Positions 37,699-64,000 are shown, numbered from the stretch's first letter. The stretch is 64,000 nucleotides of DNA from Yuukianura sp. NJ FZ-2021 (GCA_046563655.1 CM102289.1:4216001-4280000); one strand, 5' to 3'. Program-made: numbers and translations. Notes: a model not told the origin generated them from the sequence alone.

Positions 37699-40395
37699 CT
37701 ACGCGGTAGGTGTGTATCCAATGATGAACTCCACATTATCATGGAATTTACGAATATTTCTGCCAGGAATAGTTTTCTGATAGAAGTCGTCACCCGGCTG
37801 CATGGAACAAAAATGTGTGCATTTTTAGCTTAACTTTACTAGTTGAAAATAGTAAAAACGTAAATATTAAACAGTAATAGTAAAAATGAAAATTGTAAAA
37901 ACTTGCCAGTGATACGTGTGTCCTGAAAATGAAACGGTTAATTCGCTTGAGTCTGCCAGTCTCCGATGCGTAGAAGGCAGCACACAGGCTTTTGTACTCC
38001 TCAATTTGTAATGATTTCAGTTCTGAAAATTAAAGTTTTTCGATTAAATTAAAAACCAAAAATATTGGATTTTATGTTAAATTCCTTAATGATTATACAG
38101 CGTGTCACACTTACAACTGAACACCTTCAGTGTAAACAACTTATTCATTTTTTAAACCATGAGGGGATTTCTGAGCTAATTTCTGAATTATTGAAAAAGT
38201 TTGAAAAGTTGTAATAACTTTTCAAGGCAACTAAACAAAAAGACACAGGAGCTTTCTAAGGTAGTCTCACGAGCGGTTTTTTCAATTTTTTTCGCGATAT
38301 TTTTTAGTGGGGCGGATTGTTTGTTATTAACTTTGCTCTGACAACGTTTTCCGTCGGTCGGAGTACAAAGTCAAATTCCTCCATTGTAACCACCCAGTGT
38401 AGCCAATAATGGGGCTAGTGGTGTAGATTGGTTTTAGGATTGGAAAATGGAATAGACAAATTTTACGCTTATAATTACTACGAATTCAATGCAACTCTAT
38501 GGCAAATAGTTGATTTGCATAAAATACTGAACACTGGTTACAAGTAACACATCATTGTTACCTCAACCAACCTTTGTACGAATTTTATAAAGTTTTATTT
38601 CCCTGGAAACCGAACAATCCGCCCCACTAAAAAATATCGCAAAAAAAATTGAAAAATCCGCTCGTGAGACTACCTTAGAAAGCTCCTGTGTCTTTTTGTT
38701 TAGTTGCCTTGTAACTTTTCAAATTATTGAAAATTTTTAAAAAGTTTGCAAATATCCCTCCATGTTTTGTAACTTTTGAAGCGGTTGTCATGGAAATTAT
38801 TTTAGGGTATTCAGTTTTAAGTGTGACACGCTGTATTTAAGTCTGAAGAATTAAATAGAAATAAATTTGTCTTTACTTTTCAGCATATTGATTGGACTCC
38901 CAATTTCACAAGGGTTCCCTCGCCGATTTTCGATTTCCTGCAACACGTAGTTCTCTGTGGCGTTGTTATCGTCATAAACCCTAGAAGGTTCAGCAGTCAA
39001 AACTTCCCATGAATCTCCAGTTATAACGAGGCGTTCCAGATGAGGTAATTCAGCAATTAATGAACAAAACGCCCCATAGTCGGGAGACATCGACGTACCG
39101 TTATACTCACAATTTATATAAACAGTCAATTTTTTCAAATTAGGGAAAAGCAGATGAGCATTATTTGCAGTTATGTTTGTCACACGAGTCAAGCATAGTT
39201 GATGGACATTGTAGAAATGATCAGTGGGCAACTCGGGAAAGTCAGGATAGTGGCTCCCTTTTTCAAAAAATTTGAGCTTGGACAGAGGCAACGTTTGAAT
39301 CCACTTCCACAATGCGGTTTTAAGATTCACTTCAAGTTCAGTCGGAAGGGAAATGGCGAGCGCAACAATTCGAGGTTGTGGTTTCAAGGCCACGAGTTCC
39401 TTGCAAACACTGTGGAATGTATTTGTGATAATTCCAAGACGGAGTTTGACTTTTGCTGAAGGCAAGCGCAGAAGACGCAGAAAGTCTGGCAGTTTTTGTA
39501 CTTCTGGTGTACGCATGATATCTTCATGATAGTTTGTGCGGTTTGGCAGAAAATTCCAGACCCATCCGCGACCAGGATAGTCGTATTCGACAAAGCAAAA
39601 GTAGGGGTAGTATAACAGCGAAAGGACTTCCAGACGAGGGGAATGCTTGATGATGTTTTCAAGCATGGTGGCCTGGTCAGACGAGCTATGGCGGAATGCA
39701 GAGTCGATCAGTATAAATTTGACCTTGAGCTTCTTTAAATTTTGAAACGCTTGAGCGTAACTTGCTTCATCCGGAGCTGGAAACTCAACTTCGTACAGCA
39801 TCGCGAGTGAAAGTGACGTCAGCATTGACGTGTGGAAAAGAAGCGTGTGAACGGATTGCATATATTTTGATGCATTCATACCGCCGTGGATTTCCCATGC
39901 ACAAGTTTTATACGTGTAGCTTTTGCGAAAGTTGAATTGAATCGTTAGTCGGTTAACTTCTGATCCATAACTTCTTAAAAATTCTTCGATAACGTTTGCA
40001 GCAATGGCAACGTCAAAGTGAAACGCAAACCTGGAAAATGGAATTTGCGTTGCTGCGGTTGTCCTCATGAGCCACGAGAAGTATCTGAGTCATTGTTTGT
40101 TCGGAACGTTACAGCAGTACGAGCATTTCTTAACAAGAGCATCATAGCCGGGCTGTCTCTCCAAGTACTGCTAACGAGGCGACAGTTCAAAATATCTTCC
40201 AACGGAAGTGACGAAAATATTCCGAAGAATATCTGCTTAAAAATTATAGATTAAAAACGTAATTAAATATAAAAAATGCTAGCTGTTTAAGTGAAACTAC
40301 CACAATCACTGGAAACTAACCTCATGCGAAAATCCGTTAATCAAATTGTCCTGCAGATTTGATGCTGCGAGTATATTTGATTCAATTCCCTCCAT
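37699..40395 (-). pseudogene. F-box/LRR-like gene copy A, frameshifted just after the F-box
   Basis: Paralog of 41134-43262. F-box GFSHEIFFGIFSSLPLEDILNCRLVSSTWR, then a 1-nt deletion near 40089 (GAC-TCAGATAC vs GACATCAGATAC in copy B) leading to TGA. The downstream 405-aa frame is intact. 3' exons near 38022-37905 and ~37830-37699 are approximate. Confidence 0.7.
38098..38833. mobile_element. Tc1/mariner-type MITE (736 bp, TA TSD) in an intron of F-box copy A
   Basis: TA|cagcgtgtcacactta...taagtgtgacacgctg|TA, with a long internal inverted pair ~38223-38320 / ~38613-38711. Absent from the matching intron of copy B. Confidence 0.85.
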
Positions 40396-45824: not shown

Positions 45825-47449
45825 AAGAAAAGTGGGCTAATAGTTCCTATAGTAACTGGCCGAATCAGCAACAACATTATATATTGTCGCCTCATCGTCT
45901 GAAATGCATCTGGAACCTGGTTTAATTTTTTAAACTAAAGATTGACGGTGGCTTGTATTACCACAAAGTCATGCAGGAAATGAAAATAAAATTGGCTGTA
46001 TAATGCTTGCGATTAATTAATGTGTTCAACCTTATTCAATTTACTGAGGACAACAGGTTGATTGGTTATTTTCAATGAGTAGCCTGGAATGTTTGTATCT
46101 CTTGAGCCGTTTCCACTTTTCCAGAGATGGAGTTGAAGGAACATGGTCAAATTTGTATGAGCAGTGCAATTTATACACGAATTTGTAACTCCCGGAAGTA
46201 GTGTTAAGCACTATACCCCAGTTTCCTAGTTGCGAAGCTTTCCATAAATGCCACTTTAAAAGCAAAGCTCAGGCTTTCTCGAACCTTTCTCAAAAATAAC
46301 TATTAAACAGTTTTTTCCAAAATCCAAAGTTAGATTTTCTGTATTAACAAGTTGACTAGAAACCTCACATTTCAACTTAAAAAACGAAAAAAGTAATGAA
46401 AACTTGAATATGATCCAAAGACTGTTACGGGAATCAGAGCTTCGTCGCGGTTTTCTCTTGGTAGAACCTGCAAAAACACCTTGCACTTTTTAGTTTTCAC
46501 TTTCCGCTTGCAAAGTTGGCTAAAATTAGATTCGCCTAATATAAACCGCTAATTCTTGAGCTCAATGTTTCAAAAATGTCATCCTATTACTCCGTGCAGT
46601 TTGGCAGTGTGTTGCGCCTAGAACAAACAAACCAAACACTTTCAACGAAAACGTCCGTCCTAATAAGTATTTTTATTCTTTTACAGTAGATTACTGTTTT
46701 ACGATATTTCTTAATTTTCCAACCCTAAAGTGTCACACTACAAAGTATAAAGTAGGAAGTTCATAAGAAAGTTATCGCAGGAGATGTTAACTTAAAAACT
46801 TCAATCTTTCCAAGCATGTAAACGAGATACGTTAGAATGTGAATGAGAAATTTTGCATACAAGCTAAATCGAGAAAGTGGTTTTGGAAAAACTGATTGTT
46901 TCCATAAACGTCACAATGGAAGCCACAAAACCATGAAGATAAAAGTGCTTTCTAAAAATAGACAAACCGTAGTGCAAATATGAAACTGCAAATATGAAAA
47001 TCCCAAAAGGAAATGTACATGTTGACATTTATAATCTTGTATGAGCAAAACTAGTACACTGGTTTATCAGTTGTGATAAAACAACTCAATCACTCTACGC
47101 TGGATTTCCGCAATTTTCGAGTCAATACTTTAAGAAGTCTTATTTCAAAGGCTGGATGAAAGTGTGAAGGAAAGTCGTTTTGCCAATTTCTTAGATTAAA
47201 TTTCTGCTTAATTAAACGCAATTAGTGTTGATTTGTGAAGTGTTGTATCTTATGAAACTACTGTACTACTTACTAGTACTTCGAAACCGTGTGACTGTTG
47301 TGTTCAAATTCCTGGAATAATCCGAAAATACAGGTATGACAATACTTTTCTTTCTGAATAATCATTGGTTAAATTGAATAGCTTACTTTTAAAATTCAGA
47401 ATTTCTTATTCAGTTATTTTACTTTCAAACATAATTAATTTCAGATATA

Positions 47450-48577
47450 ATGCCGCGGTTTCGTTCAAGATTGTTTTTTCGCCGCTTCCGTCCAAAAATA
47501 TTTGTATTGTTTGGTGTCCTTTTTAGCACCATTGTTGTGTTTGGTTTTTGGACAAACCCAAAAGTGTTGCTCAGAGATTTTATTTATTTAGTTCGTCCAA
47601 TCTGGGATAAACCAGCAAGTCAACCGAGCATTGTCATACCACATTTCTACGCCGAGAATTTAAGTAATGCGCAGTTGTGTCATCTTCATGGTTGGACAGC
47701 ACGGACAGTTGATGAAGAGCCTGCAGTTATCGACGCTGTGATATTTAGCACCGAAATTGACATGTTGGAAATTCGTCTACGAGAATTATGGAATGTCGTT
47801 GACAAGTTCGTAGTGATTGAGACGAACTTGACTTTCACTGGAAAAGACAAGCCGCTTCACTTGGCTGAAGAAATGGCTAAATTCGAATGGGCGAAGGAGA
47901 AACTCGTGTATTTCGCCGTTGATGGACTAGTCAGTACGTTACCAAAAGGACAGACGCCGTTCTACAACGAAATCAAAATGAGGTCAAACATGGCTCATGT
48001 TCTGGCTTCAACCGCAGTTGGACTAAAAGTCGGCGACCTAGTTATTGTGAGTGATGTCGACGAAATTCCTTCGGCCAAAACTGTTTCTCTACTAAAATCT
48101 TGCAAAGGTTTTCCATCCGGACTTCATTTGCAAATGCGCAACTACATGTACTCGTTTGAATTCTACATCGACAGAGACAACTGGAAACCGCATGTTGACG
48201 TGTACAAAGGCGGACGTCCTGGGTACCATCATCAATTTGCTTCCAATTACGTTCTGGCGCATGCGGGATGGCACTGCTCCTTTTGTTTTAGATACTTGGA
48301 CCAATTTGTGTTCAAAATGCTAGCTTACTCTCATACTGACAGGGTAACTAGGGATGACCTATTGGACAAAAATAGGATTCAGGAAAAAATTTGCAGAGGT
48401 GCAGATATTTTTGATATGTATCCGGAAGCCTATACGTATCGAGATTTGATTTGGAAAATGGGAAATTTGCCTAAAACGGATTCAGCAATGGATGTGCCTG
48501 ATTTCATTGTACAAAATGCGGAGAGGTTTAAGTTTTTACTACCCGGTGGCTGTCAGCGTGAAGACAAACCTCAATAA
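47450..48577 (+). CDS. Glycosyltransferase family 17 (beta-1,4-N-acetylglucosaminyltransferase, GnT-III/MGAT3-like), plant/fungal type
   Basis: Type II TM anchor; motifs VIDAVIFSTEIDMLEIRLREL, FVVIETNLTFTGKDKPL, IVSDVDEIP, YMYSFEF, AGWHCSFCF, KMLAYSH. Intronless CDS. Confidence 0.92.
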   Translation: MPRFRSRLFFRRFRPKIFVLFGVLFSTIVVFGFWTNPKVLLRDFIYLVRPIWDKPASQPSIVIPHFYAENLSNAQLCHLHGWTARTVDEEPAVIDAVIFSTEIDMLEIRLRELWNVVDKFVVIETNLTFTGKDKPLHLAEEMAKFEWAKEKLVYFAVDGLVSTLPKGQTPFYNEIKMRSNMAHVLASTAVGLKVGDLVIVSDVDEIPSAKTVSLLKSCKGFPSGLHLQMRNYMYSFEFYIDRDNWKPHVDVYKGGRPGYHHQFASNYVLAHAGWHCSFCFRYLDQFVFKMLAYSHTDRVTRDDLLDKNRIQEKICRGADIFDMYPEAYTYRDLIWKMGNLPKTDSAMDVPDFIVQNAERFKFLLPGGCQREDKPQ

Positions 48578-48892: not shown

Positions 48893-50917
48893 TCATATTT
48901 GACTACTTTTAATTTTGTAACATCCAAAACTTGTGCCAAATTCTATCATCATAGTCATTATACCCAGAAGCAATCCGACCCCTAGAATTGCAAACAATCC
49001 AACGAAACTGGTCAACGTCAAAACTTTACTGTCACTCGTCAATTGTTGGTATACTTCCAACGCCTTACGATTGGTGCCCTCATCCGGAGAGTTTTGAACC
49101 CAATGAGCAGCGCGAGCACCACTCTCCGACAAATCCTGTGTTGTCCATAGAGTGGATATGCCTGATGCCCAAATTTTGCCAATGTAAGAATTAAAAGTTT
49201 CTGTTATCGGCGACATCTTCCGGAAACTCCAAGCAATTTGCTGGCCACTGAACACAGAATCCTTGGACTTCAGAACAAGTTCAATTTTTTGGCGTTCACT
49301 GACGGTGGAATTTGTGCGTACAGCATAACTTCCATGGACGTTCCAGTCGAGGCAAGCCACATCTTGTCCTCCGACGACTGCAGCGATACACTCCTGTGAT
49401 GAATTGATTAACTGAGCTCTTCGAATGATTTCATGCTGCATTGGATCTTTGGACGTTATGGCGTAGTTGTAGGCCACGCCCCCGTAGTACCGAAAGAGTA
49501 GTTGATAGTTTTGGTCAATCAGTTGCGCATGCGTAAGTGGAATTTCCTTCGGCGTGTTAAATGTAAGGAAGTAGACGAGGCGAGATCGGTAACCTGCCGA
49601 AACCACTAAACAAAAGAACATCCAGACGAACCAAAGTGCTCTAGCTCGAAAACCGCTCCAACTTTTAACGCTAGCGGATTGCTCAAGGCCAACCGCCATG
49701 ACAGCAATGGTAACCACCGGAATTAGTTCATATGCAGAGTTTAGAGATGGTTCCGTTGACACAATTTTAACACGAAGTGACAAATAGAAAACCGGAACCA
49801 GGAGTAGCGCTACCACGAATGTAAAAAACCACACAGTACTTTGAAGCGGAGAAAATATTGCGCGCCAAGTTCTAGCAACAGATGGAGCTCTGATGAAGAA
49901 AATCCTTTGCAATTCTTCGAGTGACGAAGAGTGGTCCACCACTACATGACGAGATTGTGTGGTTCCAGTTCCCCAACCAATGTCAGCTTGTCGATTCAAT
50001 ACTTCACCAACAACGCCAAACCATGATCCATTTTTCATAAATCCTGACGAACCGCCGCTATTTGCATACTGAATGGTGAACGTGAAATTATATTTCCGCG
50101 AAGAGTCCACAATCAATCGATAGTAAATTCCAGTAAATGTGGAAGATTTCAACGGCTTACCAAATTTATCAGCTTTGAATTGCAACCAAGGAGTTCCCAA
50201 AACTGAACTAGCAACAAAATGTGCTCCATTTAACAAGTTTGGGCAAGTCCGCATGTGCAAACCACGCAGTAAAGATAGGTCATATTCCATGTCGGTACAT
50301 CCGTCGGTAATCCGGAACCGGGAATCCAAATTCTGGATGTGGTAGAACTTGTATCTTATTTCGGCGGGAAAGTTAGTATGACGAAAGTGTCGAATGGCTG
50401 TATCACTAGCCGAAAAAATGAAGTAGTCTATGTGTGGCCTGGATACTCTGGATAGAACTATGGACTTTGTCAAGCGTTCCAACTCCGCATAAGTCTCATG
50501 CTTGTATGCAACAGAAATGAAAACTAGTTGACATTGGAATGAATGTCGAAGTGGTCCAGGGTACTTTGGAAACATCAATTCTTCTTCTGTATAAAGCATA
50601 CGAAAATATTGTTCCGTTTGTTCTGTCTTTGAAATCGAATTACCGAATATGAATAGAACTGAAGGAAGCAATTCGTCAATAGGTGCAATGTTTGTAATTG
50701 TGTTTTCGAGGTCAACGCTGGAGTCACGTTGGATGTCATCCGAAGAAACGACAATTGTTTGCGTGGAGCATCCGCATGCGCAGAATGCTCCGGAATAACA
50801 ACCAATAAGCAGATATGCAAGTGAGAGCGTTCTTGCTACGATTCTAGGAGTTTTGTGAAATACTAAGATAATCCATTCAAACACAAGCAATACCAGAAAC
50901 GCCGTGAGTAGACTCAT
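48893..50917 (-). CDS. Divergent ionotropic receptor (variant iGluR, IR family), intronless
   Basis: S1 lobe NGSWFGVVGEVLNRQADIG...RHVVVDHS; M1 after IFSPLQSTVW; M3-like WFVWMFFCLVVSAGYRSRLVYFLT; S2 lobe; final TM LTLTSFVGLFAILGVGLLLG. First ATG at 50917 (the ORF track starts at GTG 50944). Confidence 0.88.
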   Translation of the reverse strand: MSLLTAFLVLLVFEWIILVFHKTPRIVARTLSLAYLLIGCYSGAFCACGCSTQTIVVSSDDIQRDSSVDLENTITNIAPIDELLPSVLFIFGNSISKTEQTEQYFRMLYTEEELMFPKYPGPLRHSFQCQLVFISVAYKHETYAELERLTKSIVLSRVSRPHIDYFIFSASDTAIRHFRHTNFPAEIRYKFYHIQNLDSRFRITDGCTDMEYDLSLLRGLHMRTCPNLLNGAHFVASSVLGTPWLQFKADKFGKPLKSSTFTGIYYRLIVDSSRKYNFTFTIQYANSGGSSGFMKNGSWFGVVGEVLNRQADIGWGTGTTQSRHVVVDHSSSLEELQRIFFIRAPSVARTWRAIFSPLQSTVWFFTFVVALLLVPVFYLSLRVKIVSTEPSLNSAYELIPVVTIAVMAVGLEQSASVKSWSGFRARALWFVWMFFCLVVSAGYRSRLVYFLTFNTPKEIPLTHAQLIDQNYQLLFRYYGGVAYNYAITSKDPMQHEIIRRAQLINSSQECIAAVVGGQDVACLDWNVHGSYAVRTNSTVSERQKIELVLKSKDSVFSGQQIAWSFRKMSPITETFNSYIGKIWASGISTLWTTQDLSESGARAAHWVQNSPDEGTNRKALEVYQQLTSDSKVLTLTSFVGLFAILGVGLLLGIMTMMIEFGTSFGCYKIKSSQI

Positions 50918-52387
50918 TGCTTCTCTAGATTTCTCAGAAACCACAATGGCGGTTGTGTGACGACAACAATACGTTTTCTCTGCATCTTTTTCTCAAATTT
51001 TCAAAGTTGCATGTATGTATGGTGCACACTTTAAGTCCAAAGTTCACCAAATGACAGAAAAATTGGTTAGAAATTACCTCAGTGTTACTGTTGTAGCATT
51101 CAATGCAAAGCGCAGAGATATTCAGGGAACACTAGAATTGCGTGCGTGTGTGTGTGTATGAAAATCGAATTTAGCAGGGTGATTTAGAAATCTCCGTCAA
51201 GTTTACATTCGAAGTTTTCTTATGTCCAATTACCCTTGATTATATGACGTAAAAAGCAAATGTGTCGCTTTAGAAATGCAACCTTGTATTTAATTTGAGG
51301 GTAAGTCATATTTAGTGACACATTTTGGCAACATGCCTTTCGTAGCAGGAGTAAAATTTATGAGGCTGTCAATATCATTAAGTTAGTATGTCACTTAACC
51401 TGACACGAGATTGTATGGAGACAATATCATGTCCAATGAAACGATCGTTTCGTTGGCCCTCGTTAAGCGTTTTCAGTCGTTATGAGCAGGCGTCAGACAC
51501 TCTTCGCGTACATTGTTTAAGATGACATGTTTTAAATTTCAATAGATTTTCGACACAAGAAAATAGTAAACGACTATTTAATTCAAGCAGTTTTTCGACG
51601 GCTGCGCCGAAGCAGACTTAAAGGATGAATTGGAATGATTTTTCCAATTCTTGTTTATTATTAATTCAAAATTCATCTAGAACGCTCGAATTCAATTTAT
51701 TAGAAGTTAATTGCAAACCAAAACCTCAAAGTCAGTGCATCTTCTGGCTCCACCACCAAATGGAACGAGTAATTCCCCTGGCTTACTTTCTAAATAAAAG
51801 CCAGGAATTACGGTATTCCTATCTCCTCGTATTAGACATCGTCCAATGTAAATTGTCTCCCTGTCCTTCGTTCTTCCGCCCTTGATTACTTGTCGTCCGC
51901 GAACATCTCGCGAGTTGACCCATTGCAAATTGGCGTCGTTTCGTGGATTTGTGAGAACCGAGAAGTTTTCTTTATATATGGTTTCACCCCCTCCGAAAGT
52001 AACGTAACATTCATCTTCATCTAGAATTGATTTGCCGATAAGTAGATGACCTTCGTGGTAAACTCGGCATACATAGAATGTTCGTCCATCGATTTCGTAA
52101 CCGGCGGGGAATGGGTTTGTGTTCCTAGCCGACTGTGTAATTTTTCTGAATCGATAGCCATAGCACCCTAGGAGTTCCATTTTTAAATAGAACATAAATA
52201 TAACACAATTTTCAAAAAGAGGTGATGAATAGAATGCTAACCTCTGCAGTCATGCATTGCATTGATTCTTTCAATGTCTACAACGCTGAACGTTCTGTCA
52301 TCTGAAGCTCCCGGGCCGAGTGGGATGTTTTTCGGAGTTGGCGGTTTCGGCCAGTAGCATTCTGTCCAGTCGGCCATTAGAGCTATA

Positions 52388-53837
52388 CAGTGAGAGGCAC
52401 GAAAACCTGCACACCTCCATAGTAATTATTTTGTTTATTTTGCCAAATCTGGGGGGAAAACTGTTGCACAAACAACCTAACAATAATCCTGTGTCTAAGT
52501 ATAAATTCGAAGATTTAACTAGATTTCATGTTCAAAGTGCTTCCCTTCAGCAACGATGCAGTACTCCAAGCGATCATAGAATGCTCGGCGAGCGTTTCGA
52601 AGTGTATCTGGAGTGATGGCAGCGAAAGCATCTCGTATTCGTTGTTGCAAGTCTTGAATTGTAGGGCTACGTACCAGAAAGACTTGGTGTTTGATAATAC
52701 CCCAGATGCAAAAATCCAAAGGTGAAAGGTCAGGAGACCTAGCAGGCCATGGAATTGGTCCATCCCTACCAATCCATCTTCCAGGAAATGTATCGTTTAA
52801 ATAGGCTCGTACATCTTTCAGCCAATGGGCTGGAGCACCGTCTTGCTGAAAGTAAATCTCATCGTCTCCAGCAATTTGCTCCAATGCCGGCCCAATTTCA
52901 TCTTGAAGCATTTCCAAATATCCTTGCCCGTTGATATTACCTTCAAAGAAGAAGGGGCCGACAATTCTGTCTCCTAGGACACCAGCCCACACGTTTACTT
53001 TTGGGGCATTTTGCGACTTACAATCTGACATCCAGTTGAGGGTTGACTTGAGACCAATATCTAAAAGGAAGTGATGTTTTCCTGCTTTTGAGTGGCTGCA
53101 GCATGGTACCATTGAAGGTTAAATAATTTTTCGGTAATTTTCGAACCTGAAATTTTGGTGATTAAATCTTCCGTTGCAAAGTACTAAAAAGTTGCTTCGT
53201 CGCTAAAGCAAATTCGTGAACTTAAATGTGGGTCTGCGTCGCACAGGTCAATCAACTGCTCATAAAACTCAATTCGGTGTTTTGGGTCATCGTTTGTTAG
53301 CGTTTGAAGAAATTTCATTTTGTAGGGATGGAACTTCTGAACTTTCAGAATTCGCTTAATTGATCGCTTCGAAATTCCAGCATGGTTGCTCAAGTCCCGC
53401 AAACTTGAATGTGGATTAGCATCCAAAAACGCTACAACTGCCGCTGAGATTCCATCGTTCGTTACAGGTTTTGCTCTTTTGTATTTTCGGTTTTCCTGAT
53501 TTCCTAGCTTTGCATTCTTCTGAACGGCCAATTTGACAGTGTTGACGGCAGGAATTGGCAAGTTAGGATGAATTCCAGCGAAGACCTCCCGCGCTTTCCT
53601 ATAACTCCCTTGTTCGTGATAAAGGGCAGCCATTTGACCCCTTTGCTGGCTTGTGTATTGCGCCATTTCTAAAACTTGAACGCAGTGGAGATAGTGGAAA
53701 CGAAAATACAAATTTTTCAGTTTTTTTAAATTTAGAATTCTGAACTCAGGTTGTTGATGAACAGAATTTCCCTCCATGGTTTCAATTGTAACCAAGGCAA
53801 CAAATTTGGGGTGTGCAGGTTTTCGTGCCTCTCACTG
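52388..53837 (-). mobile_element. Tc1/mariner-superfamily DNA transposon, DD41D (rosa/Visitor-type), 1,450 bp
   Basis: Perfect 28-bp TIRs CAGTGAGAGGCACGAAAACCTGCACACC with TA duplication on both sides. Transposase motifs FSDEATF, FQQDGAPAH, WPARSPDLSPLDFCIWG, with 41 residues between the 2nd and 3rd Asp. Confidence 0.95.
52519..53666 (-). pseudogene. Defective DD41D transposase with one intron
   Basis: Start MAQYTSQQR at 53666. A stop plus frameshift follows DEATF (~53184; NGRFNHQNFR continues in another frame). GT-AG intron ~53146-53061. A second 1-nt shift lies in YWSQVNP/WMSDCK (~53038). Confidence 0.8.
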
Positions 53838-55451
53838 TATAGTCAAATGGAATATCGATGGCAGCTTGATCCAGATTTCGAACCTTGGAATAAAAAAATA
53901 ACATTTTTGAAGTACAATGCTTAAAATTCTACCGAAAATGTTTTCAGAAACGCGTTACTTTGTCAGCAAAACCTCCTTTGCAAGAATCCTGCTTTTCGGT
54001 GTCCCAGTAAATGTACTCGTCTCTGTCTGTCCTATCCTGCTCATGTGGGAATCCAAGTGTATGACCCAATTCATGCAAGTAGAATGGTAGTGGTAGACCG
54101 CTACTGAATGTCGCTTCCTGCCCTTTGTCAATAAACTCTCTGCAATTTTAGACGCAATACAATTTCCAAAATTTCAAAATTGTACAAAATCAGAAAATTT
54201 TGTGGTTTTATTACGGCCGCCGTCCCATATGCGCCGAGCAGCAGTTTCCAAGCTCGAGAACAACCCAGTATCTGTCCCCACTTTCTTTTGGTCTGAATCG
54301 AACGCAAGTTCTGTCTTGAAAGTAACGTGTCGCCCTTAAGAACATTTCACGGTCTCTGACTGGGAAGTCTGGACGAAAGTCATAAGGAATAATACCGTGA
54401 GGCCAAACGTAAGAAATGCCGGACCTTTTCACCTATGGCAAAATATTTTTGAAGTTTCAGCAAAGAAAAATAATTTTAAATCATTTTTTTACCCTGGTGT
54501 GATTTGCGCATCCCTGCACGGAAACGAAAGTTAAAACTACGAGTAGCAGTGTTACAAGATACATCTCTGGTCGAATTTTTTTTTGCAATTTCTAACAATT
54601 AATTTTTGTTTCGTTTCGTAACTATTTATACAGATAGATGCATATGTTGGAAGTGTTCCAAGTGACATGGAATAGATTTATGCACAATTTACAAACCTTT
54701 GCCACATATAAGTAAAGAAATATTAATAACAATTTTTAGTAGTTTTCTCTTAAAACGAATTATGAAAAATACTTTTTAGTTTTAAGTAATAAACAATGTT
54801 TTGAACCTTAATTTAAAAACACTTGGATGAAACTTAAATACTAGAGATAAAATATTTCCAATAATTCTCTTCCGGGAGGAAGAGAATTATTTTGCCACAT
54901 ATTGTTTTTTAATTCTGCGAACCTTTTAAAAACGACTATAAATTTGATGTTTTGCTGGAAGTTTTGTTTGAAAGTCAGCGACAATTTTTTTTTGAATTAG
55001 CTGTGGACATGCTGATAAATTTACGGTATAAAAAGTGAAATATCTCGATTGCCACGGTTCACACAATTAACAATATGCAATAAACATGGCAATAAAAAAA
55101 GGAAGTGACAGCAAATATCTGAAACATTTGGCAACATTAAAAATTTTTATACAAAATATAGATGTTATAACATATAATGTATCACCTAAAACACTTGAGG
55201 TATTTGGCAAACCTTGAGACGAGTAAACGTGCTATAGTTTTTTTTAATAAAGTTTTAACATTTGGGTGTTATTATTTGTAAGTTCAAAAACTTTAAAAGA
55301 TATTTATAAAGTCTAAAGTTCTAAAGCCGTTATATGTGCTAAGGCGTCGTCGTAGTATTCAATAGTGACCCAAACAATGGTCACCTCAAATGTCAAGGTC
55401 ATTGTGGATCCATTTGAACCTTAAGTATAATTTAAAGGAAACTGTGATAAA

Positions 55452-56318
55452 CTATGAACGAATAAGACTGTTAGAGCGTTGTGCATCAAGGGGTTGGATT
55501 TTGGATTGGGTCTTATTATTCGAAACGCCACGATTGAATCGCTGGTTTTTGTAATCATAAAACGCTGCGTTCTTTGTGTTAAATCCATACTTCTTAATTT
55601 CGCTTAATACGCTTGATTTTGTGGCTTCCGAAATTGTTGTTTTTTTCGTAAGGACGAACCAGTCGAGTGAATTTGATTTTTCGTTGCAAGGCATCACTAG
55701 CACTGCGTTTTCGTTGTCGGTCCACATAATGCTATCCACTGCTCTTGCTGTCAAAAATGATTTTTTTTGTGATTTGTACTAGAAGAAATGAATGAGAATG
55801 AAAACGATTTTGTACTTTACCTGCCGACTTGATGTCACTTCCTGGCGTGCCCCACAAACTCAAGCACACCGTAGACAGTATATTTTTGGGAAAACTTTGT
55901 GAAGTAGGGAAGCACGCTTTTGAAAACGATTTTGACCCACCAAATCCCGTGATTCTGTAGTATGAAAACAAACTCATGACACGAAGGTCAATGAGGTCAA
56001 GTTCAGCCGAAGAACGGGCGTGTCTTCCGAGAAGCACTTCGGCTGTAAGGCGGTATGCTCTTTCTGATGCCATTGGCATAAACCAAGTGCCAGGGGCACC
56101 TAGCTTCAAAATTTTCAAACGCAATTAATTTTCTTTTTATTATTGTTATCAATTGTTTTTTTTACCCAAAAGAAGTTGACTGGACCAGAAAACGGTGCGA
56201 TTGATTTCTTGTCATTTGGACAACTGAGTTCTTTGAAGTCTTCAGATTTTAAAACGGAATTATTTTGAGGCACAGCTTGCGCAACGAATACAATCAGCAC
56301 ACAAAATGAAAATTTCAT
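55452..56318 (-). CDS. Secreted lipocalin/apolipoprotein-D-like protein, 3 exons (possible frameshift)
   Basis: Signal MKFSFCVLIVFVAQA; N-terminal CP followed by GTWF (lipocalin GxW); TDNENAVLVMPC; WFVLTK plus a terminal amphipathic helix ...IKKYGF. The obvious exon 2/3 junction is out of phase by 1 nt. Confidence 0.5.
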
Positions 56319-56961
56319 TGTTTTTTACTGAAATTTTACAATTCTTGCAAGAATAAGAAAGAATGTACAATTATTGTGGATGCCTATTTCATAAATGATA
56401 AACACTGTGAGATACGGAAATGCTTACGTTATAAAGTTTTAATGCTCAGATTGCATAATGTTACATAAGATGAAGATCTTGCAACAACATTCAACCGGTT
56501 ATTGATTCAACATTTCTTCAAGTTTATGAAGTGTAATGTAGTTTTAATGGAAGGATGGAACGAAAAGATACGGAGTAATTACCATTAGCCACTCGATTAG
56601 CAATCAAAAATTACAATCTCAGGAAAATTTATTTATAATGTATGTAGTTTCGGAATACTTTCTCCGTTTCGGTTCTTACGCACTTTGCTCATTGGCCGAA
56701 ATTTTTTGATGCTTTTCAATTGGCCGCGACCACACGGAACCAGAATCGCTTAAGTGACTTCAATTCTTTGAGGTTTTTTAGTAAAGTGGCTTATATCGGT
56801 CAGTATGATTAATGCTTCATTTAAAAAATTATTACCGTTTAACGCTACATCATAATCAGCATGTCTGTTTGAAAATTTGTAATTTAAATTAAGGTCAGTT
56901 GACTTAATTTTCCTCCTATAAAAAGTTGTGTATCGAGTGCGACCGTCTAGAATTTGCAACT

Positions 56962-57408
56962 ATGAATTTCAACCTCGTTTTCACGTTAGTTTTGGCTGGA
57001 TTCGTTGTGACACTTGTCACCGGTAAGGTTATTTCCAGCTGCTGAAATTTCTTTCATGTACTAAATTTAATGCAAAATATAACTTGAAAATATGTAACGC
57101 GTCTTTTTTCAGGGGAAACGTCTGAGGAGCATTCCTGCGATGAATTTTGTCCCAAGGGCGCCAACGGATGGGAGCGAGAGGCAAGTGCAATTGATTCCAA
57201 AACTAATTTGCGAAATTTAAAATTTCCAGATTTTTACTGGATGAAATCTACGTTGATCTTACAACGATCTGAACCTATGATCAATTTTTAGCATGAAGCT
57301 ATGAGAGTATGCTGTCGGCAGCACGGATTTCAGGGAGGATGGTGCTCGACGCGTGGAAGAGAAGCAGACCAAGTAACAGTTGCAATTTGTTGCAGGGATT
57401 GTAAATAA
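56962..57408 (+). CDS. Diapausin-like cysteine-rich secreted peptide (8 Cys), 3 exons
   Basis: Exons 56962-57022, 57113-57180, 57292-57408 (second intron GC-AG): MNFNLVFTLVLAGFVVTLVTG-ETSEEHSCDEFCPKGANGWEREHEAMRVCCRQHGFQGGWCSTRGREADQVTVAICCRDCK*. The CDxxCP...CCRxHG pattern matches insect diapausin. Confidence 0.75.
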
Positions 57409-57997
57409 TAATTGCAATCACTCCAATGTAAATGTTAGTTTTTACGCTAACTGTTGCGTAAAACTCTTAACAATCTTAATAAAAAAAATTTCAATTCCAT
57501 TTTTGTGTTGAAAATTTTTTAATGTTGTGGCTATAGCTTACACGGTAAATAAACTTCAATAATTAGTAAAGGCGTAAAACATTTTCGCGCGTAGTTTTTA
57601 TTTGTTTTATTTTTCATGCAAAATTTCACAATTTTACAAACTATTACTATATAGTTAAAATGAAAGTTGTTTATGAATAAAAGTTGTTTTCATATTTTCA
57701 ATTTTTCACTGAACACGTTTCACAATCCGCGAAAAGCCACACATGATCCTTTTGCTCAGTGATCCATGATTAGAGTTTATCTGATGGTCTATCAGTGTTG
57801 AAAAACAGCTTCAATTTTATCTTCTATTAAAAAGATAAGCATTTGCCACCATACCACTTTGCACCACCATTTCATTTCATTTGGCATTTTGCGCTCCTAA
57901 AGTTTCAAAGGCTTAAGTTAACTTTTAGTCCAAAAGTTATAATTTTTACAACTCCAAGGTTACGGGCACACAAGCTATCGCAAGCGTAAGCGAAACA

Positions 57998-60900
57998 ATG
58001 GATGCAGTAGGCGAACTCTCGCTGGTAAAAACTAAATCACGGTTCATAATTCTTTTGGATTTCCTTTTTACACAATGGATTTTTAAAAAATGTGATAGGT
58101 TATTCGAATTTATATTTCTTGCAGCAAAGGAATTCTTGCGAGAAGCTGAGGGCAATGTTTAAAGATTTGTTTAACGCAGAGTACTATTCAAGCACGCTTG
58201 GACTACAAAAAAGAGCTGGACTTCATATTCGACTGGAGACTACACACGCGCGGACGGTTGGAAGTTCGAAATATGTGGACTTGGAAACGAGGATCCTGGA
58301 AGATGTCTCAAATGCAAACGGTCCATTGTCGACACTGGTTGTTGGGGATTCTGGAACTGGAAAATCTTGGTTAGCACTCAACTTAACCAAGCAATTGTTC
58401 GACTCTACACGACCGGAATTTCAAAACAAAATCCCACTGTACATTCCCCTGGGTCGAGTTGAAAACATGATCAGTCAGCAGAGAGCTCAAGCATCCAGTA
58501 GGTTCAGGTCGGACATTCTGTTTAGTTACATAATGAATCATACGAATCATTTTCCAACAAAAATTCATGACAGAGAATTGCAAAATTTGTATTTGGATCT
58601 CTGCGCATGCGAGTTGATTTTAATTTTGGATGGATATGATGAACTTAAAGTCAAGTTCAATTTGTGGGAAGAAAACCGTTGGAGAAGTAAGCACTTTAAG
58701 AATGTTCGAACAATAGTTTCTAGTCGTCCTATTGCACTAATTGGTCTTGACGTTTCGAAAATATTTGGATTTTCGGATCAACGTCAATGCAGTTATGTCA
58801 TATTGCCCTTAGAAGGGAACCTTGTAGAGAAGTATATTAGTCAAGTACCATTATTTTTACAATCGATTGAATACGATTCAAATGTCAATGACCCTTGGAT
58901 GATGACCAAATCAATTACAAAGGATTATCCACAATGGGAATCTGTGCAGAAGGATTCCGAGTACAAGTACTGGTTTTTAGACAGACTTCCAGAGTTGCAG
59001 GGATTGGCACAAAATGTTTTCCTTTTGACAATAATTTGTCAACTGTTGCCTAAATTAGTAGAGACTGAGCGAATTGGTAGTAACGGGAAAGATGTAACTG
59101 CCGAATTTATGCTGAAATTACAAGAGATTTGTAGAACAGAGGTTCTTTTGTATGATAGGTTTACTGAAACTTGGTTCAAATATCAAGTTGAACGAATGGA
59201 AGCGACTGGACATGCGCATTGTCTTTATGAAAATCGTTATATACTGCATCACTATATGGGTGGTTACGCACAAAATTTAGCAATGCATTGTGCTCTGACG
59301 CGTGGAATGCTCTCAAATGGTGAAATTCAAGAAGATAAAACATTGTTTTGGAATCTTTGGACTCCTTGGAGCCCGAACTCAGAAGAATTTCATAGAGACA
59401 AGAGTTTAGAAGAATTACTTTTTCCACAAAACGAAAATGACACAAATGAAGATCGTGTAGGAAATCTCAAATTTTTGAGAGATTCTTGTTTGATGCGATA
59501 CGAGTCCGGAGTTAAAATTTTTAGATTTTTCCACTTGTCGCTTTTTGAATATTTTTTGAGCAGAGAAGTTTTTGAAAGATATCGTGGCACACTAAACTAC
59601 TATTCCAATTATGACAGACGAAGAGAGGGAGTTTACTTTCTAATTAATCAAAGTAATATTAATGATCCAGAATTTAGCGGTGTTTTGTCCATGCTTGTTG
59701 GTAGAGCTGAAACAGATGAAAACTTTCAAGCCACTTTGCTAGAAGCAATCAAAAAGTCTGCTACACTTCCTGGAATTGAGCGAATGGCTTCAAATGCTTT
59801 CACAATTTTAAATTTAAGTGGTTATAGTTTTTCTGGGAGAAACACCGAGGATGACAATTTTCAAAATATTCAAGTCCCAGGAGCAAATTTTAGTAATTCC
59901 ATTTGCGGAAACAGCGATTTTAGTGGTTCAAATTTTGAGAATGCAAAATTGAATCAAGGGTGGTTCCAAGGGTGTAATTTTCAAGGCATAAATTTTAAAA
60001 ATACCTCATTCGGACAAATTCCACCAATTTACATTGGCGTCGAGACGTCTCTCGTGCATGATATGTTGTGTTGCACAATTGATGGATTTCAGCACGTAGT
60101 ATTATGCTGTCAAGAGTATTGTGCAACCGAGGATAAAATGCAACTGTACTTGAAGAATTACAAATTGAACGCAGACTTTAAATTTGTGGAATTCACTTCA
60201 ATTTTTATACTAGACTTTAATGAAAAAGAACAATATCTGTTTTCTCTAATTCAAACTGAAACAAGCGTATTTCTTTTTTTGTTTGTCGAGTGTGTCCTGG
60301 GTTTTTTAAGTGAGGAATTCATGGGTCCTGCATATTGGTTTGAATTCAGTTTCAACTCGCTCGTAAATTCTGGGAAATTTGGAGAATCCGACTTGAATTT
60401 TTCGCACCATTTAGAAGTTTTCAATGAACGGCACTCAACACAAAAATTTATTCTGTTTTTCCGAAACAAAAATCCTGAATTTTGTGACAAGGAAGCATTA
60501 AAGTCGGTGTATGGAAAAAACCGAGAAATTGGCTTCCGAGAAGATGGGGTTCCTTCCGGGGTGTGTAGGATCAAATTTATCTGGGTGCCGTTTGGATCAT
60601 TTAAATTTCTTGTTTCGATTTGGTTTCGAGAGATAGAGGAAATTGGAGGGATTTGTCTAATGGAAAATATCCAATACATTTCGTTTTTACATGATTGGAA
60701 GCCGATTTTATGCAATAAGGAAAGCGTTGCGTTGGAAATATTTTGGCAAGTTCACCATGCCGATGATGAAGGAATGCAAGAGGCGTTTTTGTTTAACCAA
60801 ATCTCTATACACTGTCGTGGATCATATTTTGATGACAACGTGGTTTTGAGCTTTCCAAGTACTGCGAATATTTACTTTTTTGACATAAAAACCAATCAAG

Positions 60901-62954
60901 TACTCACTGTCTTGAAGACTGACTGTTTCGTCAGAAGTATATCAAATCATGAAAGTGCGACGTCTGAACACATAGCGTTCGCCCATCTTATGGACCATTT
61001 TAGAAAAAGAATAGACAAAATGTTAACCATTATCATGAGAAGGAGCACAAGTTGTTTCCTTTCCGAAAATTTAGACTTTATTGCACGAAAAAGCCCAGTT
61101 TCAACAGACGTGTTTAGTGTTAAAACTGGAACGCTATCGAAAAATGTTCTTCAAGATTTGCAAACGCCTGTTACTTTTAAACATTCCATTGAGAGTACTT
61201 ATGTGGTTTATATTTTAAGGGGTTCTTTACATTTCGAGAAACTTGAAATGATTCACATTTTTCCTAAAAATGAGACGCGCGCCAAGGTTCCTGTTGAAAA
61301 ATATTTTTCAGAAGATGGTCTGTGCGTAGAGTTCCCTTGTCTAGCACTAGCTGCGTTCTCGGATATTTATAAATTTTTACCTGGGGCTGATCATTTTAAT
61401 AAGCAGGGAGTGCTGCTGACACCTCACAACTTGGCGGTATCGTTTTTCTGCCCTTATGGTCCTCCAGGTTCTGCTAGAGTACCTAAATTAAATGGGGCTG
61501 ATGCTAAATGTGGGCAAGGGTGTCCCCTAAAAGGTATACCATACGATCGAATATCTCAAGAAACTGAAATTTTGATGTTTCAAAATTTGCAGAAAATTCT
61601 GTTCAGAAATGATAAAGAACTTTCTTGCTATAATGTCACTGAAATTAACTACGGTGACACATTCGGTTTGGAGTTGGTTCATGACTTGACATTTACTTGT
61701 GATTTTGAACATCCGGAGTTTGCTTTTGATCCTAATGAAAAGCGTGCGTATATTTTCATCAAAAAAAGTACTGATATTGACCGTATCGGTCTGTGGGATA
61801 TGCAAAACAATACGTACAAGACTTTCAGCGTAAAAGACAAACAAACATTAGCACAAAGTAATAAAAGTCTATGTACCGTTCTGTTAGAAACTAAAATCAT
61901 TCAAGGATACTACGAAGAAGACTCTTTTTACATACAACGTTCAAATATATACAGTAAATTGCACGTAGAATGTCCTGTACATGTTTCCTCAAGTTCAAAA
62001 TTAGGCTGGATTGTAGCCCAGTTTCGGAATGGAGATTTAGTGATTTTAGAATCCAGGAAATTGGAACCCTTATTTGTCTTTTTTGGGTTCACTCCTGGGT
62101 ATAAATTTCATATAACGCTTAAATCTCTTCAACAAGTACGGATTGCGATTGTCAAAGACTATGCTGGAAAGATAGTTTGGCTGAGTATAAATGCCGTTTC
62201 TCTAAGGCAATATTATGAGCAAGGAAAACTAAAAGAATTCAAGGATTGGAAAGTTGATAAAAGTGAAGTTCCAAGTTCTAGTCTTTCGTTGAAGGAAGTT
62301 GACGTATCTTGTTCACGATCAGTGGACGAGGGATTTCGGTCACTGTTTAGATTTCATCGTTCACTTGGGTCTCCGTCAGAACGGGCCGCATATCACCCAT
62401 TTTGCAATTTGTTTATACCAGTAACAGAGTACCAACATTCCATTTTAGTAACTTCTGACTATGAACCACCGGTTGACTTGACTACCGTCTGGACAGTGAC
62501 AGTTATTGCTAAGAAGGGTAAATTTAAACTTAGAAAAAGAGTGCAACCACATTCAACATTGATTATTGAAGGAATTTTACACGGGGGGCACTTTGTGATT
62601 AGAGCAGAATTAACACGAGACAGTGACAATAACGTAAACATCAAATGCGAATCATATAGAGGGAAATTAAACTATGAAGAAATCATTAACCAATATTTTG
62701 GAAAGCAACTTCAGGTGAATCCTAAAATGGGAATGAAATTGTTGAAAAATATTTGGGTAGATACGTATAATCCACAATGGAAGTACGACTTGTTGGTTCA
62801 CAATTGTAATAGCTGGTGTAAAGAAAAACTACAGGTATTGAACATTGAAGACAAATTTAAGTCTAAATCGTACAAATTGTTTGTTGACCTTCCGAAAGAT
62901 TTTGGTTTACGAGGATTTAAATTCACTAAAAAAACACACCAGAAAGTAAAGTGA
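57998..62954 (+). CDS. STAND/NACHT NTPase with pentapeptide repeats, long beta-rich region and C-terminal permuted papain-like (PPPDE/LRAT-like) domain, ~1,620 aa, 2 exons
   Basis: Micro-exon 57998-58024 (MDAVGELSL), 100-nt intron, exon 58125-62954. Walker A VVGDSGTGKS, Walker B LILILDGYDE, IVSSRP, FRFFHLSLFEYF; ASNAFTILN followed by pentapeptide repeats (ANFSNSICGNSDFSGSNFENAKLNQGWFQGCNFQGINF); C-terminal HSTLIIEG...YDLLVHNCNSW. Confidence 0.88.
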
Positions 62955-63172
62955 TTGTTACGTCGTAATTATTCGTACATATTTATATTTGTACTAAATT
63001 ACAAACATTGCCATTGTAATAGTTTGTAGTTACTATTTTTACTTCAAAGCAAAATATTTTAAAATGTTTAAATAAAGAAAAGTTGGAATAGTATTCTCAT
63101 ATTTTTAATGAAAATGGTGAGTTAGTTATTGTTAAGGAGAACGTCCATCCACATTGCATTCACAACGCAACT

Positions 63173-63914
63173 ATGAATTCCAACCTCTTTTCACGTTAGT
63201 TTTGGCTGGAGTCGTTGTGACACTTGTGACCGGTAAATTTAATGGCAAGTGCTGGAATTTCGTTTTTTCTAAATCTAATGCAAAATATCTCTTTCTTGTT
63301 GCGGCATTGTGCATCTGTCGCCATGTCCTCTGAAGTGAGAAATGTGACAGTTCACTCTCGCTTTGAATGCAAGGTTATGCAGTACATGAGTTAACCGTCG
63401 CTGCACTTCAATTCAATTTTGACAACAAAAGGGTTGAAGTAAACCATATACTGGCTAATTGTACCAAACTTTTGTTTTTTGCCCTATTCGTAAATTTAAC
63501 GATTAGCGTGTCAAACTGGTACATACGCCACACTCTAGACTATTTCCGTTGCCGATAGGCAACGCAATAGTCTAGTAATCTAAAAATCTGTATAAAAGCG
63601 TCTTTCAGCTTTCAGGAGAAACGTCCGAGGAACATTCATACGATGAATTTTTCTGAAGGGCGCCAACAGATGCGAGCGAGAGGCAAATGCAATTGTTCCA
63701 AATTTACAAAGTTTGTGACATTGCAAATTTCCAGATTTTTACTGGATGAAATCTGTGTTGATTTTATAACGACCTGAAACTGATGATCATTTTTTAGCAA
63801 GAAGCTTTGAGAGTATGTTGTCGACAGCACGGATTTCATGGCGGATGATGCTCGACACGTGGAAGAAAAGCAGACGAAGTAACAGTTGCACTTTGTTGCA
63901 GGGATCGTAAGTAA
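63173..63914 (+). pseudogene. Pseudogenised duplicate of the diapausin-like gene
   Basis: Colinear with 56962-57408 including introns and 3' flank, but with a 1-nt deletion in exon 1 (early TAG), Cys-to-Tyr change and TGA in exon 2, TGG-to-TGA in exon 3, and ~300 bp of extra DNA in intron 1. Confidence 0.85.
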
Positions 63915-64000
63915 TAGTTTCACTCACTCCAACGAAAATGTTAGTTTTACGTTAAATATTGCATAAAAATGTGAATAAAAAATTTTAAACTCTAGTTTTG

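Follow-up and report, generated by a model that had tools for sequence, protein, structure and literature searches.

A host-integrated NLR-like gene of a bacterial-type NACHT-pentapeptide family with a conserved C-terminal Cys/His domain

Introduction

How did a gene whose product joins the nucleotide-binding module of NOD-like receptors (NLRs) to a bacterial-type series of domains come to lie among animal-type genes, and what might its product do there? The question is raised by a locus near the end of a 64,000-nucleotide (nt) stretch of Yuukianura sp. NJ FZ-2021 (GCA_046563655.1, CM102289.1:4216001-4280000), the whole of which is called the window here. The gene lies on the plus strand, coordinates are counted over the whole window, and residues are numbered from position 58125, where the long exon encoding a protein of 1609 amino acids (aa), P0001, begins. 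An original prediction, made from the sequence alone, had described it as a horizontally acquired NLR-like NACHT protein domesticated by gain of a 5' intron. The analysis presented here identifies it as a host-integrated STAND (NLR-like) gene of a catalogued bacterial-type family. The complete chain of events that we favour, i.e., transfer from bacteria, domestication, local expansion, divergence of the sensor beyond recognition and use of a papain-fold domain as output, is given a probability of roughly 0.6.

Results and discussion

The N-terminal part of P0001 is a NACHT-pentapeptide module without an animal-type effector

NACHT-class NTPases are defined by a Walker A motif of the form GxxxxGK[ST] and a Walker B motif of the form hhhhDGxDE, followed by a [ST]SRP-type motif. 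P0001 has all three marks of this class of STAND NTPases, namely GDSGTGKS (residues 74-81; 58344-58367), ILILDGYDE (residues 165-173; 58617-58643) and SSRP (residues 199-202; 58719-58730). They fall within the NACHT core (58335-58739), which has phmmer relatives down to E 5.6e-84. The Pfam NACHT model (PF05729) aligned with residues 71-205 at 26.6 bits against a cut-off of 26.7; this cut-off is passed by the relatives P0014, P0019, P0020 and P0022 (33.7-43.5 bits), which match the NOD module of the window protein at E 1e-36 to 1e-47. The core is followed by the NACHT-associated helical or winged-helix part of NOD (58740-59786), located by the alignment with relatives over query residues ~45-640, and by a pentapeptide-repeat beta-helix segment (59787-60029) that opens with ASNAFTIL (residues 555-562; 59787-59810). 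Directly after NOD, residues 586-621 matched Pfam Pentapeptide (PF00805) with 29.9 bits, the cut-off being 20.2.

Two elements of the original prediction were thereby recovered, the ASNAFTILN motif with its pentapeptide repeats and a P-loop within ~80 aa of the start, which was found at residue 74, or 83 if exon 1 is counted. The protein has no N-terminal domain, and the same holds for its nearest relatives. Pfam searches at E<=1 revealed no CARD, PYD, BIR, DEATH or LRR family in P0001, and phmmer comparison of NOD with all PDB chains, a set that presumably includes several animal NLR structures, gave 0 matches at E<=1. Both results agree with the proposal of a non-animal architecture lacking death-fold and LRR domains.

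The closest relatives form a family with members on bacterial contigs

An exhaustive phmmer search with residues 1-1200 returned 755 proteins at E<=1e-3, headed by P0010 (E 5.6e-84, 40% identity), P0011 (35%) and P0012 (33%). In nearly all relatives, the best matching stretch ends at about query residue 635, which is the end of the pentapeptide segment. A homologous NOD of ~590 residues, ending in AxNAxTIL, is common to the window protein and the bacterial-type family. When 18 relatives were scanned with Pfam, a gradient became apparent: NACHT and pentapeptide repeats without WD40 in P0010-P0012, weak WD40 in P0013-P0015, and strong WD40 in P0016, P0017, P0021, P0027 and P0030. A word-based search, which failed to pick up the 40%-identical relatives found by exhaustive phmmer, returned only NACHT-pentapeptide-WD40 proteins of Mortierella, Entomortierella, Linnemannia and Glomeribacter, at 23-26% identity. 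These organism-named matches account for the Mortierella-type relatives that had been suggested beforehand, but the nearest relatives belong to a separate subfamily, which lacks an N-terminal effector and carries a conserved Cys/His domain at the C-terminal end.

Members of the family are encoded in bacterial genomes. Two gammaproteobacterial metagenome-assembled genomes (MAGs) were detected when each prokaryotic species, represented by one genome, was scanned for a pattern drawn from a 7-sequence sub-alignment (A2). A 2.0-Mb contig of one of these MAGs (CAVYTG010000001.1; genome G001, the only one in its taxonomic order) encodes P0030 without a single difference, the parts being NACHT, ASANAITILN, pentapeptide repeats, ~14 WD40 blades and C-terminal domain in this succession. 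At this locus (L013; G001:C1:1286000-1296000), the gene adjoins those for an 874-aa NACHT-pentapeptide-WD40 paralogue and a 594-aa RhoGAP-domain protein, and the presence of this eukaryote-type RhoGAP gene hints at a eukaryotic-cell-associated lifestyle of the MAG. A second family copy on the same contig (L002, 3565-6756), flanked by DDE transposase and integrase genes and devoid of the NACHT part, looks like a copy disrupted by an insertion sequence.

Local scans confirmed open reading frames (ORFs) with full NOD and C-terminal domain in G001, G057 (three), G104, G324 and metagenome contigs. A scan of metagenomes yielded six loci with the family, the neighbouring genes including those for TolB, OmpA/Pal, FolD and an amino-acid permease. 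Contig Ga0233425_10003746 (L016, 2479-12894) contains three family genes in tandem, separated by 3-nt spacers; the WD40 parts of these genes have a guanine-plus-cytosine (GC) fraction of 0.53-0.57 vs. 0.42-0.47 in the flanks. The full-length metagenome members P0281-P0283 share the layout of P0030, including an AxNAxTIL-type motif and the pentapeptide repeats. Among 400 genomes sampled from the class of the MAG (one further genome was left unscored), 11 had a match to the C-terminal domain at E<=1e-6, and most of these matches lie in frames of 1400-1570 aa. A collection scan with P0017 found no relative, and its comparison with the 400 genomes, in a tally that includes three unpublished genomes, gave mostly WD40 matches with a best NOD identity of 38% (G357); this comparison was not used as support.

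The window clade is nested among bacteria-traced sequences

Phylogenetic relationships of the NOD module were assessed in a quick tree of 88 rows, i.e., those covering most of the module among 163 proteins examined, and in a careful tree of 59 rows (LG+G4, with ultrafast bootstrap and Shimodaira-Hasegawa-type approximate likelihood ratio (SH-aLRT) values), hand-picked from the first tree and completed with nine ORFs from the loci; 35 of the 59 rows are without established origin. In both trees, the window protein and P0010, P0011, P0012, P0160, P0013 and P0014 form one clade (100/99). This seven-member clade is nested in sets of 13 (95/97), 32 (100/100) and 47 rows (100/97), and rows traced to bacteria appear at successively deeper nodes, with G104 and G057 followed by G324 and then by G001. 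A neighbouring 14-row clade holds the bacteria-traced G199 and a metagenome cluster, and the fungal rows P0002 and P0004 (Mortierella, Entomortierella) fall in the outgroup half. The nearest rows of established origin are bacterial, in a tree that was built without named metazoan NLR sequences.

The position of the window clade among bacterial-contig sequences fits the horizontal acquisition that had been proposed for this gene, and suggests that the transfer ran from bacteria to the host lineage. If many of the nearest relatives were eukaryotic, the direction or the age of the transfer could differ. Kibby et al. (bioRxiv 10.1101/2022.07.19.500537) report that NACHT diversity is greatest in bacteria and argue from trees for several bacteria-to-eukaryote origins of NACHT, the events being ancient.

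A conserved C-terminal Cys/His domain is the probable effector

In BLAST and phmmer searches with residues 641-1609, many family members, including WD40-rich ones, were found to share the last ~210 residues. This domain spans residues ~1386-1596 (62280-62912) and is putatively a hydrolase or acyltransferase of the permuted papain fold. A hidden Markov model (HMM) derived from a 16-sequence alignment (A1) located it at the extreme C-terminus of 60 out of 160 family proteins and matched P0001 at E 2.3e-73. Two motifs characterise the domain, His...Glu-Gly and Asn-Cys-x-x-Trp, and P0001 has both, as HSTLIIEG (residues 1476-1483) and NCNSWC (residues 1560-1565), with His1476 at 62550-62552, Glu1482 at 62568-62570 and Cys1561 at 62805-62807. 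Across 63 distinct domains, conservation is nearly complete for His1476 (62), Glu1482 (63), Cys1561 (61) and Trp1564 (63). P0043, the one sequence without the His, which is replaced by Arg, has also lost the Cys, replaced by Ser, as expected if both residues work together.

AlphaFold modelling with A1 reached a predicted local distance difference test score (pLDDT) of 72.2 and a predicted template modelling score (pTM) of 0.63, and the fold class is thus proposed from a model of medium confidence. In this model, the Cys (A1 position 192) starts a helix (192-201) and the His (107) precedes a strand (108-116), so that the order is His then Cys. A Foldseek-independent structure search with a stated background of Z 7-8, which is exceeded by the first match alone, retrieved TseH (6v98; Z 9.6), CLN5 (6r99; 7.9), DeSI-2/PPPDE (2wp7; 6.7), a chain of the Euglena respiratory supercomplex (6.3), Aichivirus 2A (6.3), YiiX (2if6; 5.6), MARTX RID (5xn7; 5.5), a Bacillus cysteine peptidase (5.4) and PLAAT4 (7zot; 5.1). 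Eight of these nine best matches are what we take to be thiol enzymes of the permuted papain fold (NlpC/P60, LRAT, PPPDE). Sub-threshold matches to Pfam Peptidase_C97, located at the Cys motif, were obtained in 4 of the 16 members (best E 0.0053). Searches against the PDB returned an arginine kinase only (phmmer with the domain, E 0.5) and a single irrelevant match (profile search, E 0.37), and a word-based protein search with the C-terminal alignment and longer lengths gave 3 proteins only. In the ESM-Atlas, all scores for the C-terminal part were <0.9, and the Rotifera clusters found, together with one in which 31% of members carry Peptidase_C97, are taken as leads only. From the conserved residues and the model, we consider it quite likely that the domain is a permuted papain-fold Cys/His enzyme.

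Its distribution is also of interest. Among the 88 rows of the quick tree, N-terminal extensions of >150 aa occur in 2 of the 36 proteins that carry the C-terminal domain vs. 30 of the 52 that lack it. The absence of an N-terminal effector, claimed at the outset, is a property shared with the 34 of 36 domain-bearing proteins whose extension is <=150 aa. The further view that the protein lacks an effector was revised: the sequence comparisons fit a C-terminal domain that takes the effector's place, and the predicted papain-fold domain is the probable effector. Literature searches found no relevant paper joining NACHT and PPPDE, the passages of Kaur et al. 2020 (PMC7159879) consulted contain no description of the domain, and the term NCC-H, which may denote the same domain, occurred together with NACHT only in the preprint by Kibby et al. 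The domain is conserved and apparently uncharacterised.

No recognisable propeller was detected in the middle region

The pentapeptide segment is followed by an orphan region of ~750 residues (636-1385; 60030-62279), in keeping with the long, putatively beta-rich stretch of the original prediction. It lies where relatives have their WD40 sensor, ahead of the C-terminal domain, and its length resembles that of their WD40 stretch (~600-650 residues). No WD40 repeats were recognised there in the window protein. Pfam searches covering residues 636-1385 in pieces gave no match even at E<=10. An HMM built from the family's own WD40 blades had 0 hits in the region, although it does find the blades of P0015, and no internal repeats were detected (z 0.3, vs. 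85 for the P0030 control). One blade-like relic, at residues 1200-1225, is faint (hhalign score 16.4, E 0.039; shuffled control 12.1). The nearest ESM-Atlas clusters are of WD40 types (0.90-0.91, with 162-169 shared features), values that lie within the chance range and provide a lead only. Middle regions of relatives match each other in the pairs P0010/P0011 (32-33%) and P0012/P0160 (55%), and none of them matches that of the window protein. In addition, the codon-usage match to the host is weaker here than in any other part of the gene (0.54). The degenerate propeller that had been proposed as sensor was thus not demonstrated by these searches; it and replacement by another fold are equally possible readings.

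The open frame requires an upstream start codon and is probably transcribed

An uninterrupted plus-strand frame extends over positions 58050-62954, with 1634 codons from stop to stop and the TGA at 62952-62954, which agrees with the earlier description of 4.8 kb in one exon. In the gene model, exon 2 (58125-62954; 1609 codons plus stop, partially covered by run X3, see below) is preceded by a predicted spliceosomal intron of 99 nt (58026-58124; GTAAAA...TTGCAG, acceptor TTGCAG/CAA) and a predicted exon 1 (57999-58025) consisting of ATG plus 8 codons (MDAVGELSL) up to the donor CTG/GTAAAA. The ATG lies at 57999 and not at 57998, where the gene had been made to start. A candidate polyadenylation signal, AATAAA (63071-63076), can be read 117 nt past the stop.

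In the long exon, no in-frame Met precedes M11 (58155), and the frame from 58050 to 58154 contains no ATG; further upstream there is an in-frame stop at 58047-58049, with no in-frame ATG between it and 58125. The N-termini of relatives can be aligned from about residue 5 onwards, ~6 residues before M11, as seen in the alignment of CEKLRAMFKDLF..YY of P0001 with VEKLEKHFRDRYY of P0010. An upstream ATG is therefore required, because homology precedes the first in-frame Met and 58050-58154 holds none. The splice signals of the 57999-58124 model resemble those of the 75-nt intron of the adjoining astacin gene (GTAATAAAA...TTGCAG), and the exon 1 peptide shows a weak resemblance to the N-terminus of P0011. 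A 5' intron with host-like splice signals at 58026-58124, needed to supply the ATG, is thus a plausible prediction. The single 5' intron of the earlier proposal stands as such a prediction, and no RNA-like contig covers 58026-58124 or exon 1.

Sequencing evidence comes from runs X1, X2 and X3, which derive from one sample, are all labelled 'DNA?' and are not independent of the assembly. X3 covers 17 of the 30 bins into which the stretch compared was divided, and its depth is ~0 at 54482-58232 and beyond 63007. Depths of 1.5-22 were found over parts of the NACHT ORF, astacin exons are covered as well, and close to the end of the gene bin 62666-63006 still has a depth of 14.1, whilst the next one, 63007-63347, has 0. 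X3 is read as RNA-derived because its cover is restricted to genic parts and includes astacin spliced joints. On this basis, the NACHT ORF, or copies >=95% identical to it, would be transcribed at a low level.

The gene has host-like composition and lies next to a probable tandem unit

The GC fraction of the NACHT gene (0.37) is close to that of its neighbours, with which its relative synonymous codon usage (RSCU) correlates at 0.78; GC at third codon positions (GC3) is 0.34, vs. 0.37-0.50 in the neighbours. A direct repeat flanks the gene, with an upstream copy at 56956-57463 and a downstream copy at 63167-63968 that are ~84-86% identical and spaced by 6.2-6.5 kb; with the downstream copy, the next tandem unit probably begins. 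In X2, a single contig covers 63785-64000, continues for another 127 letters and then enters sequence that matches 57628-57748, and therefore the upstream region of the gene recurs just past the end of the window. A second unit of ~6.4-6.5 kb probably begins there. The flanking direct repeat and the contig join point to tandem duplication.

Summed contig depth, which according to the tool's own warning is not copy number, a caution that tells against the hints drawn from it, varies along the gene. It amounts to 422-909 in X1 and 352-597 in X2 over 58574-59937 (7-18x the single-copy level), falls over 59938-61983 to mostly 49-74 in X1 (one bin 134) and mostly 64-80 in X2 (one bin 14), and rises over 62325-63006 to 267-399 in X1 and 64-144 in X2, the latter run being at about single-copy level in bin 62325-62665. 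Contigs also occur that skip 97 nt (from 59371 to 59469) or 1064 nt (from 58599 to 59664). These data hint at several copies of differing structure that have near-identical NOD and C-terminal domain parts, with a middle that is not common to them. No paralogue of the NACHT gene was found elsewhere in the window.

The surroundings contain animal-type genes. An astacin metalloprotease gene (HELGHTLGFPHEQDRTDRDEY; 53883-54432, minus strand) has two GT...AG introns, of 75 nt and of 76 nt (GTAACG...CCAAG), and both are present as joints in X3 contigs. The window gene scan also located an ionotropic glutamate receptor gene (48896-50992, minus strand), as well as genes for a DM9 protein, an F-box protein and a MYND-finger protein. 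A single-exon gene for a GT17 glycosyltransferase (47435-48574, plus strand; Pfam E 6e-136) has named matches, besides the best one considered below, in sciarid flies, a second springtail, an oribatid mite, Mucorales, chytrids and plants, and among the 120 matches listed there was no close rotifer match, which, together with a springtail as best named match, makes a bdelloid rotifer host unlikely; the history of this gene may be patchy or involve transfer. Remnants of a Tc1/mariner-type transposase lie in two frames at 52519-53831 (minus strand; weak DDE_3 and HTH_Tnp_Tc3_2 matches), and very high DNA-run depth was recorded at their edge (1572 in X1).

Elsewhere in the window, long open frames of 151-972 codons at 5447-19663 (minus strand) look like one giant gene, three pieces of which match SecA DEAD-like or SecA P-loop domains (E 1.7e-9, 4.4e-7 and 1.5e-7), which is unusual in a eukaryotic gene. 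Two open frames of ~400 codons, at 32284-33486 (plus strand) and 38851-40089 (minus strand), had no Pfam match at E<=0.001. Neither Rfam families nor tRNAs were detected in the window.

Proposed history and function, and competing explanations

The scenario that we favour is that a eukaryotic lineage with animal-type genes acquired the NLR-like gene from bacteria. After the transfer, the gene would have gained a small 5' exon and an intron, adopted a host-like composition and undergone duplication, as indicated by the probable tandem unit and the hints of near-identical NOD copies, and its sensor region would have diverged until the WD40 signal was gone. In the protein, the ~750-residue middle would bind a trigger, upon which the NACHT module would exchange nucleotide and oligomerise. 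Oligomerisation would bring the C-terminal permuted papain-fold domains together and switch them on, with the His1476/Cys1561 pair acting as a thiol hydrolase or acyltransferase whose substrate could be a peptide or isopeptide bond, as for PPPDE-like enzymes, or a lipid acyl ester, as for LRAT/PLAAT- or CLN5-like enzymes, and the outcome might be cell death or an immune signal.

Several results weigh against this scenario. Regarding its phylogenetic side, the origin is not established for the six nearest relatives or for the next six (P0015-P0019 and P0050), two of the eight rows chosen as outgroup were placed across the root from the other six, and bacteria living inside eukaryotic cells are known to acquire host genes too. 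Regarding the host, GT17 is the sole neighbour that was searched, and its best named match, in a springtail, reaches 54% identity; moreover, X3 has no contigs over 57892-58232, which leaves the predicted intron and the start codon without RNA cover. The proposed output domain scored 14.4 bits with Peptidase_C97 (PPPDE, PF05903), below the cut-off of 29.2, which places it outside that Pfam family, and Foldseek with the C-terminal model returned nothing at 1e-3 (best E 1.5e-2). The association of a short N-terminus with the C-terminal domain follows the tree, so that its Fisher p of 2.7e-7 is not independent evidence. With respect to the sensor, pairwise BLAST revealed no similarity between the middle region and those of relatives, and the AlphaFold prediction of residues 560-1609 from a 7-sequence alignment had a mean pLDDT of 35.1, was not used for fold search and offers nothing in favour of a propeller.

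Other explanations were weighed against the same data. The family might be old in eukaryotes, with intracellular bacteria having taken copies and the window gene being a vertically inherited, fast-evolving member. Such a history would suit the mostly small size of the family-bearing bacterial genomes (1.5-2.8 Mb), the eukaryote-like RhoGAP gene adjoining one bacterial copy, the many tree rows without established origin (35 of 59) and a window clade of at least seven divergent members with 30-40% identity. It is nevertheless judged unlikely, since bacterial sequences branch off at several separate, deep points around the clade of the window protein, bacterial copies form tandem arrays with 3-nt spacers and sit in core-gene neighbourhoods (Tol-Pal, FolD), no structurally solved animal NLR matches NOD at E<=1, and the greatest NACHT diversity is reported to be bacterial (Kibby et al., bioRxiv 10.1101/2022.07.19.500537). 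Far less probable still is that DNA of a symbiont or contaminant was mis-assembled onto host sequence. The bacterial-type architecture, the mere ~1 kb of window beyond the gene and the lack of a single Logan contig that joins the astacin and NACHT genes would be compatible with such an artefact, whereas a GC fraction of 0.37 and codon use like that of the neighbours, a start codon that is reached only via a predicted host-like GT...AG intron, and a best relative of 40% identity, so that no donor-like sequence is known, argue for a resident gene. Furthermore, the bins at the junction are covered (30/30 in X1 and 29/30 in X2, in runs that are not independent of the assembly), and the RNA-like run X3 holds astacin spliced joints together with pieces of the NACHT ORF.

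The gene could also be a decaying or non-immune relic with a degenerating propeller, or its C-terminal domain a structural cap and not an enzyme. Consistent with this idea, the middle has neither repeats nor relatives nor a confident fold, shows the weakest codon match (0.54) and retains one faint WD40-like relic, and no catalytic assay was found in the literature for any family member. A stop-free frame of 4.9 kb would be unexpected in a relic at 37% GC, however, and the intact Walker A, Walker B and His/Glu/Cys residues as well as the ORF pieces in RNA-like X3 speak against decay, which makes this explanation improbable. The middle differs between subclades with conserved modules on both sides, which is also expected of a diversifying sensor.

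Returning to acquisition from bacteria, a more specific version can be put forward tentatively, and we hold it to be distinctly less probable than the general one: an invertebrate-type lineage may recently have captured a bacterial NLR with a thiol-enzyme warhead, spliced and expanded it, and kept chassis and warhead near-identical while the sensor was rebuilt into a non-repeat fold. If true, such a recent capture would show, in a form that can still be read, how a bacterial defence gene independently gave rise to a family of animal innate-immune receptors. With its bacterial layout intact, and yet with a host-like composition, a probable intron and probable copies both in tandem and dispersed, the locus would be a much younger and more legible case of transfer than the events that Kibby et al. 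propose as ancient. The C-terminal domain provides a testable candidate effector which, if confirmed, would account for signalling by NLR-like proteins that have no effector at the N-terminus, and the conserved chassis around an unrecognisable middle region would make the family a natural system for studying the replacement or diversification of NLR sensors.

Comparison with known systems

Canonical animal NLRs (NLRP, NLRC, NOD, NAIP) are also NACHT-class STAND NTPases, and the same logic of sensor, switch and effector is expected for the window protein. It differs from them in lacking an N-terminal domain and LRRs and in the C-terminal position of its putative effector. With the Mortierellaceae/Glomeribacter proteins P0002-P0009, it has NACHT and pentapeptide repeats in common (23-26% identity over ~80% of residues 1-700). 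Unlike the window protein, none of these carries the C-terminal domain, and the NACHT domains of P0002 and P0004 start at residues 564 and 619, leaving long N-terminal parts in front. As for the permuted papain-fold enzymes, the predicted fold is alike, with His before Cys and the Cys at the N-terminus of a helix, and the Cys of the window protein stands in an 'NC' motif, which we take to be a feature of the catalytic Cys in these enzymes. The domain departs from them in having no sequence-level membership, in ~80 extra conserved N-terminal residues and in its fusion to a STAND module.

The closest likeness is to bacterial NACHT (bNACHT) proteins, e.g., P0030 and P0281-P0283. According to Kibby et al. 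(bioRxiv 10.1101/2022.07.19.500537), bNACHT proteins are related to NLRs and include forms with pentapeptide and beta-propeller repeats, and some bacterial NACHT effectors lie at the extreme C-terminus, after the repeats. Compared with them, the window protein has no recognisable WD40 blades (~14 in the bacterial protein), and its gene has a eukaryotic neighbourhood and needs an intron. In both, an N-terminal effector is absent, and homology between their NOD modules is seen at E 1e-28 to 1e-45. Throughout, a short leader precedes NACHT, the helical extension closes with AxNAxTIL, and pentapeptide repeats lead into a long region with the Cys/His domain behind it.

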